Below, piece by piece: positions 1 through 22,836 of a stretch of 26,494 nucleotides of DNA (within the stretch, counting starts at the first letter, position 1; every line of letters starts with the position of its first letter). The notes under the pieces were generated by a model. That model was not told the DNA's origin. It searched no databases and saw nothing but the letters and a program-made list of their open reading frames with translations. The position numbers were made by a program, and so were the translations under genes. Origin of the DNA: an archaeon (lineage in GTDB: Archaea > EX4484-52 > B79-G9); assembly GCA_043813875.1 (NCBI GenBank), contig JBDRKP010000079.1, forward strand, positions 1-26,494, written 5' to 3'.

Positions 1-3000
1 AACATCACCTCATATCACTGGGATTTTGGGGACGGAAAGACATCCACCCAGCGCGCCCCCACGCATAGCTATTCTGCCAGCGCTGATTACTCTGTGACGC
101 TTATCGTGACTGACAATGACAATCTTAAGGCGACAAAAACAGAAGTCGTACATATCCGTGGCGTAGCGCTCTCACGCGTCACTCATCCCCATGACATCCC
201 TGTCGGCGCTGAACTATCTGTCAGTGTAACAGCAAACCAGGTGACAGACATAACACTGGATATAGGCACATTCCACGAAACAAGACACGGAAATGAAATC
301 ACATTCCATGTAGACACCAATGCATTGCCCAAAGGCGAGAACACACTGACAGTAACTGCCGAATCCGATACATACACGGATTCTGTCATAGTCTACGACC
401 CTGCGATATACCGCTCAATCACCAAAGGAATTGATGACCTCGGAGTATATTCAAAAGCCGAGATGCGCGAGATATCCGGTATTACAGGATATACGCTTAC
501 CAATCACGTATATAGTGTACTACAAAATGTAAAAATACATGAAAACATCACTGTGAGCAAAGTAGTGAATGAGTTAAGGAATAATCTGAACTATGTAAGT
601 GAGAATATCACCTCAGAACTTGAAAAATTCAAAGATATTGCCAAAACAATCGATTCGGCAACCGGCATACAACTGGATGGTATGGATTCGGTCGTCAATA
701 CGATAGTAAGCCTAAGAAACGCGATTGATGACTTCAGCGACATGATTAGCGAACAAAACATCGTTCCGACAATAAATAGATACGTGACGACTCCAGCCCT
801 ATATGCAGTGACAAGTTCAGATGAGGGAAACTTAATTGATGAGCGCACGCAGTCTGCAAAACACAGCCTCAACCCCTATTATACACAGCAGGAACTGGAT
901 GAGGTGAATGCAATATTATTGATCGGCAAAGAAGCAATTTCCAACACTGATGATGAGGAGATATATCGGCTGGACATAGGCACAATCTTTGGGCATGACA
1001 TCGCTTTGAATCCGACACTTGATTACTTTTCAGAAAGACAGTCAGAGTCAATTAATCCACCTAATGCTACATGTATTCTGGATATATGTATAGAAGGCAA
1101 GTATAATCCATCATGGGTATATCATATGACCGTTGCAGATATTGAGTCCGTATTGACAGTACCAGCATATATCGGCTGGATTCCGGCAACACCAGAAGAT
1201 GAGACCATTCAACCCTCCTTTACGATTATGTTTGATCCAATTACGGTGACGGTTCAGGCAATAAGAACGTATATGAAGTACGCAGATATGGTTGAGAAGG
1301 TATCCCCATGGGTCATAGATGGCGGGATGATCATATCGACGGATCTGCTGGCAAAAGAAGTCAATGAGGAGCACGGCGATATAATACAAGCCATCGCCGA
1401 CATAACAGAGACAATGAATATCAACAGTGTCGGGAAGCCAGGGATAATGAATGATCGTTTGTATATCCCAAAAGGCAATATGCTTGTTACGACATCTCCT
1501 GACGGGAAAATAAGGGATTTCAAGTATGCAAAGTCCGATTCGCTGACCCAAAAGCCCAAGACCGGAAGCATGATTTCATTGAACACCGGATGGTCTCAAT
1601 CGTTTACTCAAGAATCTCAAAATATAGACGTCATCCTATTATCAGACAAATCAGAGTACAGCTTAAATGACACTGTTTACCTGACTGTAAGCATCTATTC
1701 TGACGCATACATTGAAGATGCGATGATCTGGATTTTTGTACCCGAGGAAAACCTGACAATAAAAGACATTGTCACTCTGGGAATTGGAAACACAACACAT
1801 AATTACAATTTCACAATACATGCTGGAACATGGCATGTCCCAAGAGTTTATGTAAGTGATTTCGGGACAGTCCTTGGTGAAAGTTATACGACGTTTTCTA
1901 TTGGGTCAGAAAGCCGCGAAAGCGGCCTTATTATGATTGATTATGATGAGTTCTATACTCCTGGTACAATTGATCTCAATGTGACAGTCTATAATACGGG
2001 TAATATCGCATTAGATTCAGAATTGTATTATTTCAGCCCAGAGATGAATCTGCGTGATTTTATCGATGTACAAACGATGCAGCCGCAAGAGCAGATAACA
2101 GAGAAATTGTCATTTGACCTGTTGACACCGGGTGTGTATGAAGTATACTTCGCCCTGAACTCAATTACGGGTGTTCTTGATTACAATGCGGTGCGCTTCA
2201 CTGTGAGTGCGCTTGGCACGCTGCTCGCATTTCCAGAGACAGATAAGCCGATATATGCAGCCGGTGAAAATGTGGATGTCGCTGTTGCAGTCAAGAATAT
2301 CACGTTGAATGTTGTTGATTTTCCTTATGCGCTTGATGTGGTGGCGCCGTCTGGTGATACGAACAGAGATATCTCTTTTGTCCCCGCTGACAACGGGACA
2401 TACATCGTGAAAGCAAGGCCGATTGCAGACGGGTATTATAATGTGGAAGGCGAGACGCTTTTTATTGTCGAAAGGCAAAGTGATCTTGTTGTCGAGGCAG
2501 AAACATCTGGCAATGTGACCGTAATTCACGTGAGAACAGATATTGGCGGCGCGGTTGAAGGCGCCGATGTCATCGTGAACGGATATGTCTTAAAAACAGA
2601 TGAAGATGGCGGTGTTGAGTTCATACCGTCTAATGCGACGCAGTTGTTCATACAGGCGGAAAAATTCGGTTTCAATCCAGCTGTGGCATCTCTAAATCTA
2701 TCTTCGGGATATGAAGAATCAACGTCATTTGATATTGTACCGATGGAGTTGAATATTGTTCCGGAAGGCATGGGGTATACTGATGTAAAAGTGACTCCCT
2801 CAGGAATGCATTCTGTTGAGATCAGGTCGGAAATATGCCGGGATCTTGATTTTGATTATGATTGTGATGAGGTCCTGCCCAATATGAATGGAGAGATATC
2901 GGTTTTATTTGAAGATAGCGGTGGTTTAACTGCGGCGACAGATTCAGCTGGTGAGGCTGCCATCAGGATAAAGGCCTTTCCGTCAGCACCGTCAGGTGCA

Positions 3001-3162
3001 AGGTATCTCTATTATGTCAGATTGGATGGTGGTGACTGGAAAGAAGCTTATGTGAATGTTGGGACAACCGGAATCCCTGAATACCCGTTTGCTTTTCTCA
3101 TCCCGATCGTGGTTGTACTTTACATCACGAGAAAATATCTTGTCAACCTCAAAGCCATTTGA
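1..3162 (+). CDS. Large cell-surface protein, 5'-partial: PKD domain, helical segment, several Ig/CARDB-like beta domains and a C-terminal PEF-CTERM-like anchor
   Basis: Frame 1 is open from base 1 (NITSYHWDFGDGKTSTQRAPTHSY...YSVTLIVTD, the PKD WDFGDG signature), so the gene starts upstream of the window. The C-terminus is GIPEYPFAFLIPIVVVLYITRK (IPE-aromatic, hydrophobic helix, basic residues). Confidence 0.85.
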   Translation, partial: NITSYHWDFGDGKTSTQRAPTHSYSASADYSVTLIVTDNDNLKATKTEVVHIRGVALSRVTHPHDIPVGAELSVSVTANQVTDITLDIGTFHETRHGNEITFHVDTNALPKGENTLTVTAESDTYTDSVIVYDPAIYRSITKGIDDLGVYSKAEMREISGITGYTLTNHVYSVLQNVKIHENITVSKVVNELRNNLNYVSENITSELEKFKDIAKTIDSATGIQLDGMDSVVNTIVSLRNAIDDFSDMISEQNIVPTINRYVTTPALYAVTSSDEGNLIDERTQSAKHSLNPYYTQQELDEVNAILLIGKEAISNTDDEEIYRLDIGTIFGHDIALNPTLDYFSERQSESINPPNATCILDICIEGKYNPSWVYHMTVADIESVLTVPAYIGWIPATPEDETIQPSFTIMFDPITVTVQAIRTYMKYADMVEKVSPWVIDGGMIISTDLLAKEVNEEHGDIIQAIADITETMNINSVGKPGIMNDRLYIPKGNMLVTTSPDGKIRDFKYAKSDSLTQKPKTGSMISLNTGWSQSFTQESQNIDVILLSDKSEYSLNDTVYLTVSIYSDAYIEDAMIWIFVPEENLTIKDIVTLGIGNTTHNYNFTIHAGTWHVPRVYVSDFGTVLGESYTTFSIGSESRESGLIMIDYDEFYTPGTIDLNVTVYNTGNIALDSELYYFSPEMNLRDFIDVQTMQPQEQITEKLSFDLLTPGVYEVYFALNSITGVLDYNAVRFTVSALGTLLAFPETDKPIYAAGENVDVAVAVKNITLNVVDFPYALDVVAPSGDTNRDISFVPADNGTYIVKARPIADGYYNVEGETLFIVERQSDLVVEAETSGNVTVIHVRTDIGGAVEGADVIVNGYVLKTDEDGGVEFIPSNATQLFIQAEKFGFNPAVASLNLSSGYEESTSFDIVPMELNIVPEGMGYTDVKVTPSGMHSVEIRSEICRDLDFDYDCDEVLPNMNGEISVLFEDSGGLTAATDSAGEAAIRIKAFPSAPSGARYLYYVRLDGGDWKEAYVNVGTTGIPEYPFAFLIPIVVVLYITRKYLVNLKAI

Positions 3163-13353: not shown

Positions 13354-16300
13354 ATGATTAGTATGAAAAAATCACAGACAAAAGTACAGTTTTCCGCGCT
13401 TGGTTTAGCTTTAGTGCTCTTTATTTCTCTTGCGTATTTTGCATTCGCTCTTCCCATAGTTACGTTTCAGCCGCCGACGCTTTCGGACAACGCCACAACC
13501 GGCGCGAACTGGGTTTTTATCAATGTGACTTCTTCCGAGCCGCTGAACCAGTCGCTTCTGGAGTGGGGCAACGCGAGCGGATTCACAAACGTTTCTATGT
13601 CAAACTCCTCGATGACCAACTGGTACAGGAACATGACCGGCTTGGCGGACGGCGCGTACAATTATACCGTGTGGGCGCAGAATACAACTGGCGCCTGGAA
13701 CCAGACAGGGAGGAGCTTTGTCACTGTAGACATTACAGCACCGACTTTAGTCAATGCAACAGTTGATAAGACAACCGTGAATGTTGGTGAGGATGTAACC
13801 TTTACAGCGTATTGGTCAGATCCAGAAGACACAGTTAAATTATTGATAGCAAACAATACTGCTTTCACAAGTTGTAATTATACAAATACAAGCGGCTGTC
13901 TTTGTTCTTCCGGAGCGGATACGACAAGCCCTTTAAATTGTTCTTATAAGGCGCAATCTTCTGATGTGACGGTGACTTGGCTTGCCAGGGTTTGTGATGT
14001 TGGGGGTTTATGCTCTGAGCTTTGTGAGGGAGGGGGGTGTTTTCTGAAAATGTATAATTTCACGGATACGGTGAATAATACTGCATGGAATAATACACTA
14101 TATGAGCCAGGTGATCCTCCTGATTATGATTCCGGGACAGAGTTTTCAGGTGGTGCTTACACTAACATAACCTCATCCGAAAATTCTTATGCGTATAACA
14201 ACTATGCCGGAAGTGCAGGCGGCGGATATGTTTCACATAACTTCAGGTTTCACATAAACGAGTCTGTTTCATCAATAGCCAGACTTAACATAAGCTGGGA
14301 AGGATATGCCGCCCAATTGGATAACACAAATGGTTTTAAGAAAACCCAAATTAGAAATCAGACCGGCGGAGATATTGATATAACAGATATCACAACTTCA
14401 GATACAACACATATGAAGGAAGTCAACAGCAGTATAGGTGATTACATAAATTCAATAACAGGAGACATTTCAATAAGGGCAGCAGTTTATGATGATGGTC
14501 CAACTTATGATGCAAAGATATATACGGATTTCATTCAGGTAATCGTGTTTACTGGTGAAAACTTTTCAGTGAATCATGCACCAGCAGTTCAAACACCTCA
14601 CGCCTACGACAACCCCGCCCTAACAGCGAAAATAATCTTTATAAGAAACGATGGGATGTTCATCAATGTTTCTGTAACCGATGCAGAGGGAGCAAGTGAT
14701 ATAGATGCTGTTTTAATAACGATTCTAAACACAACCGGGGGAGTTATTATTGATAATGCCACGATGATTCAGGATGGTTCTATCACGGAGGGTTATGTCT
14801 ATAATTATTCCTGGACTGTGCCGGATGATGCCGGCCTCGGAACCTGGACTATCACTGTTTATGCCAACGACAGCCAGAATGCTTGGGGAGGCAATACAAC
14901 TACTTTCGAGGTAGACACCCCCCCGCCCCACCTTAACCTGATCCAGTGCGAGGTGAACGCAAGCGATAACTGGATAGAATGCGGTAATATACTTTATGGT
15001 TCTACTCTCCTGGGTGTAAGGGTGAACTGCACAGGTATAAGCCAGATAACAAATGCGACATTCAGATTAGAGAATCTTCCCGATTCCAATATATTCTTCA
15101 ATGTAACAAATGCAACCTCTGTTTCAGGGGATTGGTGGATCCACGATAATGACGATATAACAATCCAGGATTCCGGTGACTGGAACCTGAGTGCTTCCTG
15201 TATCGATCAACGCTCAAATCAGAACAGCAGTTCCGTGAACTGGTCTGTTCCCTGGGGTCATCTGGAACCCTACCTGATAGATCCTGTATCAGATAAATCT
15301 GTTGCCAGAGACCGGTTCTTCACCTTCCAGAGCGGTGTCAGATGCGTCGGCGGAGAGTGCGGTGACGTTAATGTTACGTTGGATCCTGAAGAAAGTAAAG
15401 TTTACCAAATCCTCGTATCCCATTGGGGTTCAGATGACTGGGGGGGTGAATTAACCCTAGCATTAAATCAGACGGGTATCAATTATAATCTATCATGGTA
15501 TGATAATGGGGTGGACGATTTCACTCCTATCACACCCTCTGATTACGATCTAATTATTTTCCAGGATCCGGACACTGATGGAGGTATCACTCAGGCTGAA
15601 TTAGAGAACGCAATTGCCACAACAAATACAATGTTTGTGTTTTGGTCACTGTAGTACATATATGTTGATAGCTTCTTATTAGAGAATACAACATCATTTG
15701 ATGAGTACGACAATACCGACTTTACGCAAATATACAAAGAGAGTAACCATTACATTACCCAAAACCTTCCAGCCGGTTGGACTACTTTTAATGACACAGA
15801 CGGTAGTTACTGGGGCACCTTCTTTACGAGCGCTTCTGATTTTACACCGTTAGTAACCAATACAAATATTAGTTATCATGAGTTCATTAGCATAAGAGAC
15901 GGTGATAAGAGGACAAGCTTGTTTGGTGGTAACATTGCTTATGATAATATCGAACCGGATACAGTTGGTTGGGATTTATGGAAAAGAACCCTTTTGTGGA
16001 CAATTCATGCCAATCTAAAAATCAACTCCATAACAACTAATCCAGGTATAGTTGGTGTTAACTCTAATGTGATATGCCAGGCAAACGTTACAGATAATAA
16101 TGTCTCTGTTAACTTCACGATAACCGATTCTGAGGGCAATAAAATAATCGATAACGTGAATGGAACCCAGTCAGGGGATATCTGGAGTTCTCCCTCTTTC
16201 ACAGTGGATAGGGCGGGAACATGGTACTGTAATGTTATTGCTTCAAATAATCTCGCAAGCACCATAAGTGATTTTATCACCTTTGTCCCGGGAGACAAAA

Positions 16301-17592
16301 GTGGGGCGGTTTCAACAGTTGTGGGGGCAACACCGTTCTACACGACCTCGAATAATCCGCAAACCTGTTCCGGTATGAAACTGGGGGATATATGTGAAAA
16401 AACATGGACTGTGAATGCAACCGGAGATGCGGAAACAATCTGGATGTTCTATACAATATTCAATCCAACTACATATTCCTCATATATTCAGGGCAACCAG
16501 ACAGAGATTGTTAATATCACTATTAGTCTTGATACAACCCCGCCATCTGTTTCCCTATCTTTATCAACATCCTCCATCTACGCAGGCTATTCTGTAACAA
16601 TCTCCTGCTCGGCTTCTGATTCATATCTTTCATCAACATCCCTGTCAGTAACAAAGCCATCAGGCTTGCAGGCATCGGCAACATGCGGGCAAGCATTTTC
16701 AGACACATCAGCAAGAGGAACATACACAGTAACTTATTCGGCAACAGACACTTCTGGTAATTCAGCATCAGCATCACAGGCATTTACCGTCAGTCTGGTA
16801 GGTGGGGGCGGAGGGATTGTTTTACCACCAGTAGTTCATGAATGCGAGACAGACGCCAACTGCACATCCGTCCAGGTATGCAGGAACTACAAATGCATCG
16901 AGTTAGTATGCAATTCCTGCGAATACATAAAAGACCGCCAGTGCACAAAATACGAATGCTGCTCTGATGCTGAATGCAAGACAGGCGAAATATGCAGGGA
17001 AAATAAATGCATAAAAGAAGAAAAGCCCGCCATTCCAGACACAGAAAAAGAAGAAGCAGAAAAAGCGATCAGTGAAGCAAAGAGCATCATCCTGAAATAC
17101 ATCACGCAAAAAGACACAAAAGAGGCAGAAGGCATCCTGAAAGAAGCAGAATCCGCCTTCGCAAAAGAAAACTACGGAGAGGCAAAAGAGATCGCTCTTA
17201 AAGCAAAGCTTTTGGTAGAAAACGCCCCACTACTGCCCGAAAAAGAAACCCCGAAAGAGGGCACAAACTGGTCTAAGGGCGCGGCAATACTCATCCTCTT
17301 AATCCTTCTTGTTATTGCATACCTCAAAAGAGACATGATAAAGATCCTCCTGGCCGGACAATTACAAAACCAGCATAAGATAATGGAACTGGAGGACTAT
17401 CTGGATCAGGTGCGTTCAATCATAGCGAATCTTAAAAACAAGGACTATGATGCGAAACTTCTTGAGATAGAAGCACAGAAAGACGACGCAAAAAAAATGG
17501 TAAAAGAGAATAACCCCCTTGCAAGAGAACAGATAGAGATGGTTATCGATAATCTGGTCGAACTCAAGAAAGAGATTGAAGGGCAAAAATGA
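13354..17592 (+). CDS. Giant membrane-anchored surface glycoprotein (~1412 codons) with one in-frame TAG at 15652-15654
   Basis: Track ORFs 13354-15654 and 15919-17592 share a frame, and 15655-15918 has no stop. Signal peptide, many N-x-S/T sequons, Ig-like modules, GGGGG linker, Cys-rich repeats, helical stalk, TM helix GAAILILLILLVIAYL and a coiled-coil tail. Confidence 0.8.
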
Positions 17593-20106: not shown

Positions 20107-21390
20107 CTAGTCTGCGAAGCTGAGTCTTGCGTATCTTGCATCGCTTCCAAGTGTTTCTTCTATCCTCAAGAGCTCGTTGTATTTCGCGCATCTGTCGCTT
20201 CTTGCAGGCGCGCCGAACTTGGTCTGGTTTGCGCCGATACCGACTGCAAGGTCTGCTATGAACGGGTCTTCAGTCTCGCCGGACCTGTGGGAGACGACGA
20301 CTGTCCAGTTGTTTTTGAATGCAAGGTTGGCTGATGCTATCGCTTCTGTCAGTGTGCCGACCTGGTTGACTTTCAGGAGCAGGGAGTTGCATGCCTTTGT
20401 CTTTAGTGCTTGCGTTATGCGCTCGACATTTGTGACCAAGAGGTCGTCGCCGACTATCTGCATCTTGTGGCCTGCTGCTTTCGTCATGGCTGCAAATCCT
20501 TCGAAATCGTTTTCCGCGAAGCCGTCTTCGATTGAGATTATCCCGTATCTTGCTGCCAGTTCTTTGTAGAAGTCGACCATCTCAAGAGAGGTCATCTCTT
20601 TGCCGTGTATGTTGTATATGCCGTCATGATAGAATTCGGTTGCCGCCGGGTCGAGCGCGAACTTTATTTTTCCTTTGTAGCCTGCTTCTTCGACTGCTTT
20701 TGTCATTAGTTCGAGGCGTTCTTCCACGCTTTTTACAGGAGGCGCAAACCCGCCTTCGTCCGCGATGTTTGTGCCGGTCGCCCCGAACCTTTTCTTGAGA
20801 AGGCCCTTTAATGTGTGGTATGTCTCAGCGCACATCCTTGTAGCCTCTTTGAAGCTTTTTGCGCCGACAGGCATTATCATGTGCTCCTGGGGATCGTTTT
20901 CCATCCCTGCGTGCTTGCCGCCGTTCATCACGTTCATCATGGGAACAGGCATGGTGAAGCCATTCTTATATGAGGCAAGGTACGCGAGACGTTCGATGAG
21001 CGGGACGTCAAGAAGCCTTGCGGATACTTTGGCTGTTGCGATGCTTACGCCGAGGATAGCGTTTGCGCCAAGCACGGCTTTGTTCTTTGTGCCGTCGAGT
21101 TCTATCATGACCCTGTCAATGTCGTCCTGTTCACGGCAATCCATGCCGATTATTTTTTTTGCGATTATGCTGTTCACATTGTTTACTGCTTTCTCTACGC
21201 CCTTTCCCATGTATCTCGTGCCGCCGTCTCTCAGTTCGACTGCCTCGTAGCTGCCGGTGGATGCGCCGGATGGGATGAGAGCGCGCTCAAGGATATTTCC
21301 TGCTTTCACATCGACTTCGACTGTGGGGTTCCCCCTTGAGTCGAGTATCTCTCTTGCTCTTATCGCTGTAATTTCGAATCCGTCTGCCAT
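20107..21390 (-). CDS. eno: Enolase
   Basis: ILDSRGNPTVEVD, PSGASTG, DEGGFAP, VGDDL, LLKVNQ, SHRSGETED, with a GGAGG RBS upstream. Confidence 0.99.
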   Translation of the reverse strand: MADGFEITAIRAREILDSRGNPTVEVDVKAGNILERALIPSGASTGSYEAVELRDGGTRYMGKGVEKAVNNVNSIIAKKIIGMDCREQDDIDRVMIELDGTKNKAVLGANAILGVSIATAKVSARLLDVPLIERLAYLASYKNGFTMPVPMMNVMNGGKHAGMENDPQEHMIMPVGAKSFKEATRMCAETYHTLKGLLKKRFGATGTNIADEGGFAPPVKSVEERLELMTKAVEEAGYKGKIKFALDPAATEFYHDGIYNIHGKEMTSLEMVDFYKELAARYGIISIEDGFAENDFEGFAAMTKAAGHKMQIVGDDLLVTNVERITQALKTKACNSLLLKVNQVGTLTEAIASANLAFKNNWTVVVSHRSGETEDPFIADLAVGIGANQTKFGAPARSDRCAKYNELLRIEETLGSDARYARLSFAD

Positions 21391-21507
21391 GTTAACCGTG
21401 CCTCCTTTTTTAAAGAATTAATATGTTGTATTACTTAATCATACAATTTAGTGCTGGTTTTTTTATATGTTGCGTTGGGTGAATAGGAATGATTGCCATT
21501 TGATAAA

Positions 21508-21526
21508 ACATATAAAGACATATAAA
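21508..21526 (+). promoter_or_regulatory. Tandem ACATATAAA TATA-box-like elements upstream of aRF1
   Basis: Copies at 21508-21516 and 21518-21526 (10-bp period) in the divergent eno/aRF1 intergenic region. Confidence 0.5.
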
Positions 21527-21601
21527 ATTAGATGTTGATATAAATTATCTTAGAAAAGGTGTTGCGTATTTGACAAATCATCAAGAAGGGATCTTACAAG
21601 A

Positions 21602-22777
21602 TTGATAAAAACTCTTTCTAAAATAAGGGGCAGGCATACTGAACTTGTTAGTGTTTACGTTCCAGCCGGCTATAATATCAATGAGATGAAGAACTTAATA
21701 ACAAATGAACTTGGCACGGCAACGAATATCAAGTCAAGGGCTACCAAAAAGAACGTGCTCTCGTCTCTTGAGCGGGTTGCGCAGAAGCTGAAAGGTTATA
21801 AGGAGACGCCTCCTAACGGGCTTATCATATTTTGCGGCAATGTTTCTCTAAAAGAAGGTATCCCTGACATAAAAATATGGGATTTTGAGCCGCTGGAACC
21901 GATGAACCAGAGGCTATACAGGTGTGACCAAAAGTTTGTTCTTGAGCCGCTAGAGGATCTGGTACGCGAGAAGGAGATATTCGGATTGCTGACGATTGAC
22001 AGCGTTGATGCGACCATCGCATTTCTTAGAGGCAAAAGCATCACCATATTCAAGAAACTAACATCTTTTGTCCCGGGAAAGACCGGCAAGGGCGGGCAGT
22101 CAGCGCAAAGATACGAGCGTGTAAGAAAGGGGCTTCTTCTGTCGTTTAAGAAGGAGGTCGGAGAGGTTGCGACCAAGGCGTTTGAATCGGAGAAGGATCT
22201 TTTAGGCATCATTATCGGCGGACCTGGGCCTATCAAGGATGAGTTTGTCGAGGGCGATTTTCTGTCGGAGGCGCTGAAGAAGAAGATATTGGGCGTAAAA
22301 GACATCGGATATGCTGATCTGAACGGGGTCAAAGAACTTGTAGACAGGTCAGATGATCTCCTTCGGGAGACAGGCATCATCTATGAAAAAAATCTTTTGA
22401 ATAAGTTTTTCTTCAATCTGCAAAGAGATACTGGTCTTTCTGTGTACGGAATGCGGGAAGTCAAGATCGCCCTGGATGCAGGAGCTGTTGATACGTTGAT
22501 CATATCGGAAGCTTTCGAGTTCGGTCATTTTGAGATCAAGTGCAAGAAATGCTCATATAAGGAGACAAAGATTATACGGAAGGATAAATTGCCATCAAAA
22601 TGTCCTCAATGCGAATCAGATCTTGATGTAGATTCCAAGGACATTTTTGAAGAGATTGAAAATCTTTGCAATCTTACAGGTGCGAAGATGGAGATTGTTT
22701 CAGAAGATACCCCTGAAGGCGTCTCTTTTTTGAGGCTCGGTGGCATTGGCGCGATTATGAGATATCGGTTGTCGTAA
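21602..22777 (+). CDS. prf1: Archaeal peptide chain release factor aRF1; the true 5' end probably extends upstream to ~21559-21572
   Basis: RGRHTELVSVYVP, TATNIKS, YRCDQKF, GKGGQSAQRY, a C-domain zinc ribbon CKKC..CPQC and GGIGAIMRY. Confidence 0.98.
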   Translation: MIKTLSKIRGRHTELVSVYVPAGYNINEMKNLITNELGTATNIKSRATKKNVLSSLERVAQKLKGYKETPPNGLIIFCGNVSLKEGIPDIKIWDFEPLEPMNQRLYRCDQKFVLEPLEDLVREKEIFGLLTIDSVDATIAFLRGKSITIFKKLTSFVPGKTGKGGQSAQRYERVRKGLLLSFKKEVGEVATKAFESEKDLLGIIIGGPGPIKDEFVEGDFLSEALKKKILGVKDIGYADLNGVKELVDRSDDLLRETGIIYEKNLLNKFFFNLQRDTGLSVYGMREVKIALDAGAVDTLIISEAFEFGHFEIKCKKCSYKETKIIRKDKLPSKCPQCESDLDVDSKDIFEEIENLCNLTGAKMEIVSEDTPEGVSFLRLGGIGAIMRYRLS

Positions 22778-22836
22778 TTTTTGGTTCCTTTGCAGAACGT
22801 TTATCTGAAGAATGTGCGCGTAACTTCAGTTTAGTA

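Follow-up and report, generated by a model that had tools for sequence, protein, structure and literature searches.

A conserved ATT-stop-C element at the 5' end of an archaeal release factor gene: a candidate site of +1 recoding

How can a release factor be made from a gene whose reading frame holds no start codon where the protein begins? The question is posed by a 26,494-nucleotide stretch of DNA from an archaeon (GTDB lineage Archaea; EX4484-52; B79-G9), positions 1 to 26,494 of contig JBDRKP010000079.1 in assembly GCA_043813875.1, which is called the window throughout. Its forward strand carries the gene for aRF1, the archaeal release factor that reads all three stop codons. An initial annotation of the window had proposed that this gene is entered by a +1 frameshift at an ATT TGA C site, much as in prfB, the bacterial gene for release factor RF2, and that aRF1 regulates its own synthesis through the site. 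Among the explanations considered here, a +1 shift at ATT TGA C with aRF1 feedback appears to fit the comparative evidence best, a site of this kind being found at 28 of 38 distinct aRF1 5' ends. The site itself, as far as aligned sequences can tell, is real, conserved and unusual.

The aRF1 gene and the frames at its 5' end

The aRF1 frame is closed by a TAG at 21551-21553. It continues as AAA AGG TGT TGC GTA TTT GAC AAA TCA TCA AGA AGG GAT CTT ACA AGA and, as the initial annotation had noted, contains no ATG, GTG or TTG until the TTG at 21602-21604. The frame one base back has a GTG (21559) and a TTG (21562), passes through CGT to ATT (21568-21570) and ends at TGA (21571-21573), which is followed by a C at 21574. 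A +1 step from this ATT reaches TTT at 21569 and GAC at 21572, in the aRF1 frame; both the short open reading frame (ORF) of 21559-21573 and the slip out of it are present as first described. The whole site, AAAAGGTG-TTGCGT-ATT-TGA-C, occupies 21554-21574, with ATT-TGA one base behind the aRF1 frame. It opens with a Shine-Dalgarno (SD)-like tract (AAAAGGTG, 21554-21561), whose AGGTG core (21557-21561) lies 6 nt before the ATT, again as annotated. With GAC 21572 as the first codon after the shift, the coding sequence covers 21572-22777 and ends with the stop at 22775-22777.

What follows the site is a full-length aRF1. The frame of 407 residues has no internal stops and matches the TIGR03676 family with an E value of 6.1e-134 and a score of 446.8 bits, the cut-off being 234.7. 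The alignment runs from residue 12 to 405 of the protein and from position 3 to 402 of the 403 in the profile. The Pfam domains eRF1_1, eRF1_2 and eRF1_3 are all found, and the protein (P0001) has the motifs NIKS at residue 58, YRCDQKF (YxCxxxF) at 122 and GGQ at 180. The gene is single-copy in a genome that is 91.5% complete, a second match being pelota-like. Profile position 3 falls on the R encoded at 21587 and the start of the profile projects to about 21581, placing the beginning of homology and coding signal at about 21572-21587. The initial annotation had likened the residues encoded upstream of 21602 to the first helix of aRF1.

Domain 3 of the window protein contains a four-cysteine insert, CKKC...CPQC (22541-22612, residues 330-353), and two relatives of family f6 (G020, G031) align without this stretch (query 8-321 plus 363-405). 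The RNA fold of 21550-21650 was no better than those of shuffled sequences (z 0.09); folding of a two-sequence alignment gave 0 pairs, but the two sequences were badly aligned.

Conservation across the phylum

The sample consisted of 42 genomes of the species set, in which phylum, class and order are one group, and two metagenome contigs (L051, L053), the only two new close relatives obtained from single-protein scans of collections. These provided 38 distinct aRF1 5' ends, two loci (L012, L016) running off their contigs. A site of the type T-ATT-T(AA|AG|GA)-C with aRF1 at +1 is present in 28 of them. ATT is invariant in all 28. The next codon is always a stop, TAA in 19, TAG in five and TGA in four, with no sense codon in any. 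A C follows this stop in 25 sequences; the other three, L008-L010 of genus g3, have a T. The aRF1 frame is open from TTT to the conserved RG in every case, and many sequences close it 2-5 codons upstream. In a set of 14 clade representatives, 13-14 have T-ATT-T and 13 the C after the stop (+4 position), and the columns on either side are unconserved except for a G-rich tract at -9 to -6. Genus g6 likewise keeps the block AAGGTGTTCTTATTTAACGA almost unchanged between diverging upstream DNA and diverging downstream codons. The initial annotation had suggested testing relatives for a conserved NTT TGA C behind an out-of-frame start. ATT-stop-C is indeed conserved, but the stop is not only TGA and the upstream start is not general: 18 of the 28 have a canonical start in the ATT frame and 10 lack one, and such a start was rejected as a general feature.

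The window clade comprises eight sequences with 75-100% protein identity. In all of them a start codon is separated by one or two sense codons from the ATT, which a stop and C follow. Six read ATG CGY/TGT ATT T(G/A)A C, the window reads GTG TTG CGT ATT TGA C and L053 reads GTG AAT TAT ATT TGA C. A further sequence, L026, has GTG CTC TAT ATT TAG C. No canonical start in the aRF1 frame precedes the motif in six of the eight clade sequences; this holds for eight of the 28 motif-bearing 5' ends, including the window and five other clade members.

A rival explanation is a one-base assembly error in the T run, or decay of the gene into a pseudogene. The window's genome is a draft bin of 90 contigs, and the public contigs over the site, from two groundwater runs of one study (X1 and X2), have a depth of ~2, one run possibly being the source sample. 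Against this, record 2 of X1 (21377-21604) and record 6 of X2 (21300-21598) agree with the window over the site with 0 differences and 0 gaps, so that the check in public data revealed neither an extra base nor any other change. Recurrence in the clade is the stronger argument against error. The layout stands in all eight independently assembled sequences, which count as independent sequences keeping one layout because their spacer bases, stop codons and flanks differ. The ORF is otherwise intact with all its motifs and encodes the only aRF1 of the genome. The initial annotation had also warned of other single-base lesions in the window, but a Pfam scan of 23 other window ORFs, which was not exhaustive, found no obviously split gene. 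Error or decay is a most improbable origin for the site. Both strands of the window's genome together contain only 13 GGTG-N5-7-ATT-stop sites; among these the aRF1 site is the sole one followed by C, and its +1 frame (402 codons) far exceeds the others in length.

Does coding begin at the site or farther downstream? The 10-14 codons between the site and the homologue of TTG 21602 were compared among equal-length clade members, in pairs that are not independent. Differences fell on codon positions 1, 2 and 3 in 20, 22 and 36 cases, 29 of the 61 changed codons were synonymous, and the length of the stretch varies by whole codons (10, 12, 14). By this comparison the stretch after the site is evolving like coding sequence. 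TTG 21602 was rejected as the real start. It would leave 8 residues before RGRHTEL, where plain aRF1 genes have 14-30; six of the seven other clade members have TTA at the homologous codon; and a start there would cut the first helix, because the family profile already aligns at R 21587. A downstream start is not a general answer, since L005, L026 and L066 lack any canonical in-frame start ahead of the conserved RGRHTEL. In-frame non-canonical starts before TTT (GTA, TTA, ATA, GCA) were rejected as well, the codon being unconserved and only 3-4 nt from the SD.

In a maximum-likelihood tree of 40 aRF1 proteins, from which seven partial loci (L066-L072) were left out as too short, the phylum forms a monophyletic clade (100/99) with the motif in five of its eight families. 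From this distribution the element (A/G)GGUG-N5-7-AUU-stop-C appears to be ancestral to the phylum, with several losses. Ten 5' ends lack the motif. Seven have ATG and one, L017, has ATC; the remaining two, L011 and L025, carry ATT in the frame of aRF1 itself, and no stop follows it. In L025 (G025:C4) the GTG of AGGTG opens GTG TTT CTA TTT TAA, out of the aRF1 frame, and the in-frame ATT (ATT TTA AAA ATA...) lies 5 nt after the SD. It looks like a lineage that has kept an ATT start, having lost the stop and the shift.

One genome bin, G010, contains two aRF1 genes. L004 (G010:C58) is of the window-clade type with 78% identity and needs a +1 shift; L065 (G010:C51) is of the type of its own genus, with 58% identity and GTG in frame. 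The two genes are paralogues or the product of a mixed bin.

Outside the phylum the layout is absent from all 30 sampled genomes of another DPANN phylum (around G042), whose aRF1 genes all have a plain in-frame ATG, as do the sampled aRF1 genes of Thermococcus, Methanobacterium, Pacearchaeota, Woesearchaeota, Altiarchaeota and Nanoarchaeota. Flags raised by the motif scan at L045 and L046 (ATT TAA A ATG) and at three of the 30 outgroup loci were dismissed as chance, the ATT-stop there closing an upstream gene or standing next to a plain in-frame ATG. In the sampled outgroup phylum the alignment of many aRF1 genes falls into two parts, with a break at about query residue 183, just after GGQ (180-182). 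Both parts lie in one open frame of 498-801 aa in G136, G147, G165, G079 and G108, and on different contigs in G160; the insert of L049 gives weak Hint/intein Pfam matches below the cut-off (L049/L064). The insert is probably an intein at the catalytic loop of aRF1.

Shine-Dalgarno spacing, ATT starts and a possible mechanism

The AGGTG of the site is complementary to CACCU in the 3' end of the 16S rRNA of the same genome (...GGATCACCTCCT), and GGTG lies 5-7 nt before the ATT in 24 of the 28 motif-bearing relatives. This is the distance at which the genome places its ordinary starts. The spacing from GGTG to ATG peaks genome-wide at 5-7 nt (59, 38 and 35 GGTG at 5, 6 and 7 nt), and ATG follows an SD at spacings 5, 6 and 7 in 61, 63 and 39 cases against a background of 5-28. 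GTG and TTG at spacing 0 after [AG]GGTG occur at background frequency (5 each of 783), and the window's GTG 21559 lies inside the SD and its TTG 21562 directly after it, at spacing 0. The initial annotation had likened AGGTG to the SD-like tract of prfB. The tract is there, but its spacing is the normal SD-to-start distance of the genome.

ATT is found in this position in other genes. Most ATT-after-SD matches in the window's genome lie inside ORFs, and the real-looking ATT starts are those of ribC, ubiX and ORF C88:1134-2306. For ribC, the archaeal riboflavin synthase gene (G000:C23:8339-8797 (-), L073:143-598; ortholog loci L076-L082), GGAGGTG(A/G)-N5-7-ATT is present in six of six orthologs with a 5' end, with a stop or no start upstream, and residue 3 aligns to position 2 of the family profile. 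For ubiX (G000:C57:4761-5324 (-), L074:65-625; ortholog loci L084-L091), TAA AGG TGx xTT xAx ATT is found in eight genomes of three genera (8 of the 17 orthologs displayed), and L093 and L096 have ATG at the same codon. From these alignments ATT appears to be the start codon of both genes in the lineage, and gene callers limited to ATG, GTG and TTG will misplace their starts. In L076, L077 and L080-L082 a small upstream ORF ends in a stop that overlaps the ATT of ribC (TAT TAG A / AAT TAA A), ribC lying in +1 of that stop. Coupled initiation at ATT is the favoured explanation of this overlap, a +1 shift at the upstream stop being the alternative.

In aRF1 itself the codon at SD distance is ATG in L014 and the in-frame ATT in L011 and L025. 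In L017 (G022:C30) it is ATC (ATC AAT CCA AAT), where the sister L015 (G027:C72) has ATG (ATG AAC CCA AAT). The ATC lies 5 nt after the GGTG of GGTGAT and the gene has no canonical in-frame start, pointing to a probable ATC start. Real use of ATT and ATC starts in the lineage affects gene calling. The ATT of the aRF1 site is probably an initiation codon too, because an SD stands at the normal start distance and ribC and ubiX have ATT starts. The layout of the site, its conservation, the SD spacing, the ATT starts of the lineage and the coding character of what follows can be taken as shown by sequence comparison.

The following mechanism is proposed, with the presence of AGGTG in the aRF1 mRNA as an assumption. 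Synthesis of aRF1 would require a +1 frameshift at AUU-UGA-C (21568-21574). The SD AAAAGGUG would pair with the 16S tail and bring AUU 21568, serving as a near-cognate initiation codon, into the P site, and the A site would then hold UGA followed by C, a weak termination context. When aRF1 is plentiful, it would terminate this one-codon "start-stop" ORF at 21571-21573 and no product would be made. When aRF1 is scarce, the A site would stay empty and the ribosome could move one base on, its P-site tRNA being poorly paired and its E site without tRNA. Weak pairing of the P-site tRNA and an unoccupied E site are both known to promote +1 shifts. Asp-tRNA would then read GAC 21572, yielding (M)DKSSRRDLTRLIKTLSKIRGRHTEL...; in relatives the next tRNA would read GAC, AAC or AGC one base on. 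Negative feedback is possible because the stop of the shift site is read by aRF1 itself, and the three stop codons found there fit a factor that reads all three. We infer the shift itself, AUU initiation in aRF1 and the feedback from these comparisons. That AUU is the initiation codon of a one-codon start-stop ORF with a +1 shift and feedback we hold to be an evenly balanced proposition. Its extension to a phylum-wide start-stop switch on the sole release factor, with the shortest possible recoding ORF and with 17 normal-looking genes included, is tentative and would be put a little short of even.

Several observations weigh against this mechanism. Its support, for the shift and for the feedback, is wholly comparative; a check for public RNA runs over 21300-22800 listed none. 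Genome-wide, ATT at SD spacings 5, 6 and 7 occurs 19, 18 and 5 times against a background of 3-29, which is no clear enrichment. The genome encodes aIF1/SUI1, expected to disfavour near-cognate starts; loss of aIF1 as the cause of a relaxed start choice is by its presence ruled out. On UUU an initiator tRNA would keep a single base pair, the middle one, and to our knowledge a +1 shift by initiator tRNA on AUU is undescribed. Two clade members have a canonical aRF1-frame start upstream, L051 a GTG five codons away and L007 a TTG 15 codons away in AT-rich, promoter-like DNA. Seventeen motif-bearing 5' ends have a GTG or TTG (one TTG) in the aRF1 frame, at SD spacing 5, and could simply start there. 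In L019 GTG has become TTG, which keeps an in-frame start and weakens the SD. L066, an otherwise intact gene of 406 aa with TAG in place of the GTG of its relatives and without a canonical start in either frame, comes from a single draft genome (68% complete) and could be an assembly error. One of the TATA-like boxes upstream would set the start of transcription near the ATT, AGGTG then falling outside the mRNA. Finally, a canonical start 2-3 codons upstream in the ATT frame, present in all eight window-clade sequences, is what a shift of the prfB kind needs.

In the original proposal translation starts at GTG 21559 or TTG 21562, reads CGT and ATT, and at TGA the peptidyl-tRNA-Ile slips from AUU to UUU, giving M(L)RI-DKSS.... 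Recoding would then occur only where the spacer puts the start out of frame, in the window clade and L026, which shares the upstream start, and other lineages would start at the in-frame GTG; the conservative change in L019 agrees with this. By standard pairing rules tRNA-Ile (anticodon GAU) would keep two of three pairs on UUU, better than initiator tRNA, with the first-position mismatch about which the initial annotation had rightly cautioned. We know of no precedent for a shift by an initiating ribosome, which, like the lack of clear ATT enrichment behind SDs, counts in favour of this reading. NTT-stop-C behind an SD-like tract matches the published prfB consensus YTT_TRA_C (PMC3711429). 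The frame of the GTG of AGGTG depends on the spacing: at 5 nt it is in the aRF1 frame (the 17 5' ends), at 6 nt in the ATT frame (window, L053, L026) and at 7 nt in neither, and the six sequences of the last kind have an internal ATG. Against the reading, its start codons stand only 0-1 nt behind the SD, a spacing at which starts do not rise above background. The distance from SD to shift codon is 5-7 nt, against 3 nt in E. coli prfB. The reading leaves unexplained the motif in the 10 of 28 5' ends with no canonical ATT-frame start, the strict ATT where any NTT would do, and the conservation of T-ATT-stop-C in the 17 genes with in-frame GTG or TTG. It fails for L066, and for L025 with its GTG out of frame and its ATT in frame. 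The GTG/TTG short ORF of the initial annotation has its counterpart across the clade in a start in the ATT frame, but its spacing of 0 from the SD and its absence in 10 of 28 speak against it as the zero frame, and we regard it as rather unlikely.

The 17 normal-looking genes are informative. The codon before TTT is always NTA (TTA, GTA, ATA): the amino acids differ and the synonymous sites are fixed. As a rough yardstick from one genome, the window's own, the share of NTA among Leu+Val+Ile codons is only 0.26, that of TTT among Phe codons 0.40 and that of AGC among Ser codons 0.23. The motif has no job in these genes under a prfB-like shift, yet it is kept at the nucleotide level, which favours the start-stop arrangement. 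On these alignments the element probably also serves in genes for which an in-frame GTG would satisfy a gene caller. The rule SD-N5-7-ATT-stop-C could correct the aRF1 annotations of the phylum, now truncated or started at the GTG inside the SD.

Could the gene be read with no frameshift at all? The start would then be TTG 21602, the Leu codon at 21593 or a non-canonical codon, and AGGTG...TATTTRRC would be a promoter, initiator or 5' untranslated element over an open frame. This AT-rich block stands 20-26 nt beyond a TATA-like box in the window clade, its T-A at -1/0 resembles the archaeal initiator dinucleotide, a TTG or ATG stands at the Leu codon 11 codons before RG in five of eight clade members, and seventeen relatives have an ordinary in-frame GTG or TTG. 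The upstream DNA is indeed rich in such sequences. The intergenic region shared with the divergent enolase-like gene (a 427-aa ORF at 20107-21390 of the reverse strand, named from its translation without a family search and given for context only) contains the AT-rich, TATA-like repeats CATATAAAG, ACATATAAAAT and GATATAAAT at 21510-21548; ACATATAAA and TTGATA(A/T)A recur in clade relatives. Upstream of 1,928 first-ATG ORFs, base composition shows a weak A/T enrichment at -33 to -23 and a G enrichment at -12 to -6. The boxes are too numerous and AT-rich for a transcription start to be placed from them. Nothing in a promoter role calls for a stop and C in one fixed frame. The Leu codon is CTG, CTG and CTT in the other three clade members, and the three 5' ends without a canonical in-frame start before RG have no such start to use. 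The frame open from TTT to RG in 28 of 28, the profile start at about 21581, and the changes up to 21602, mostly at third codon positions with length steps of whole codons, also count against it. A gene read without a shift is improbable.

Repair of the frame in the RNA, with one U of UUU lost through slippage of the polymerase or through editing, would make use of the three-T run at the site. Known slippage needs much longer homopolymers, and the conserved stop and C and the start-distance SD would be left unexplained; we give this scarcely any credence. Homopolymeric runs of A or T are named in the introduction of the archaeal survey (PMC3711429). Some form of +1 recoding at the site, whether from a start-stop or from a short ORF, is on the combined comparative evidence quite probable.

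Elsewhere in the window, the ORFs at 94-3159, 13354-15651 and 15919-17589 of the forward strand (1022, 766 and 557 aa) have no Pfam match at E 1e-4.

Relation to known recoding and autoregulation systems

The initial annotation knew of no archaeal precedent, and none was found: the open-access literature, supplements excluded, yielded no report of aRF1 frameshifting or autoregulation and no paper containing both "archaeal release factor" and "frameshift". A term search of a 2021 review of archaeal recoding gave no mention of aRF1, RF2 or prfB (PMC8211752), and a 2016 review of frameshifting has no aRF1 or eRF1 in 300,000 characters of its text. In the accessible part of the GeneTack survey of 77 archaeal genomes, release factors are mentioned only for bacterial RF2 (PMC3711429). 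Recoding of aRF1 may represent release-factor autoregulation by +1 shift in a new domain and a new protein family, and the architecture itself may be new. The site would be a rare archaeal case of +1 frameshifting.

The only recoding found in print for the eRF1/aRF1 family is that of two giant viruses. The eRF1-like genes R726 of Mimivirus and mg280 of Megavirus contain a frameshift and a readthrough inside the gene, read as autoregulation, and such mechanisms are stated to be absent from eukaryotic and archaeal homologues (PMC3521657). In these genes internal stop codons must be bypassed. Unlike these genes with two internal events, the window aRF1 would have a single event, at its very 5' end and in cellular archaea.

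Other systems share single elements with the site. Like infC, the bacterial gene for IF3 that is autoregulated through its AUU start codon, aRF1 would be a translation-factor gene with a near-cognate AUU start; in infC the factor regulates the choice of start codon, whereas for aRF1 the sensing step would be termination at the next codon. Minimal upstream ORFs of the AUG-stop kind also place a start directly before a stop, as a ribosome-holding element, but in the known start-stops no shift leads the ribosome into the main ORF. In antizyme (UCC UGA) and Euplotes (AAA UAA), as proposed here, it is the slow reading of an A-site stop that drives the +1 shift. Antizyme, unlike the aRF1 site, senses polyamines, and Euplotes shifts genome-wide.

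The closest resemblance is to bacterial prfB, the textbook case of release-factor autoregulation by frameshifting. Both are class-I release factor genes with a stop codon near the 5' end that is read by the encoded factor and with the main ORF in +1. Both have an NUU codon before the stop, a C after it and an SD-like tract upstream, and a +1 movement onto UUU and a negative-feedback logic would be shared as well. The differences are equally clear. The P-site codon at the aRF1 site is AUU, not CUU; all three stop codons occur; the SD stands at the start distance of 5-7 nt, not at 3 nt; the zero-frame ORF has 1 to 4 codons, as against about 25; and the shift may occur on an initiating ribosome. 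The aRF1 product is no homologue of RF2, so the system is an analogue of prfB and not a member of its class. The likeness would be convergence, because aRF1 is unrelated to RF1 and RF2 apart from GGQ, as the giant-virus report describes (PMC3521657). If the site works in cellular archaea, the same control logic would have arisen independently on an unrelated factor that reads all three stops. The start-stop version, if true, would be a new way for the ribosome to choose its frame at initiation, and would make aRF1 the first autoregulated archaeal release factor, the first case of an initiating-ribosome frameshift in gene control and a convergent counterpart of bacterial prfB.

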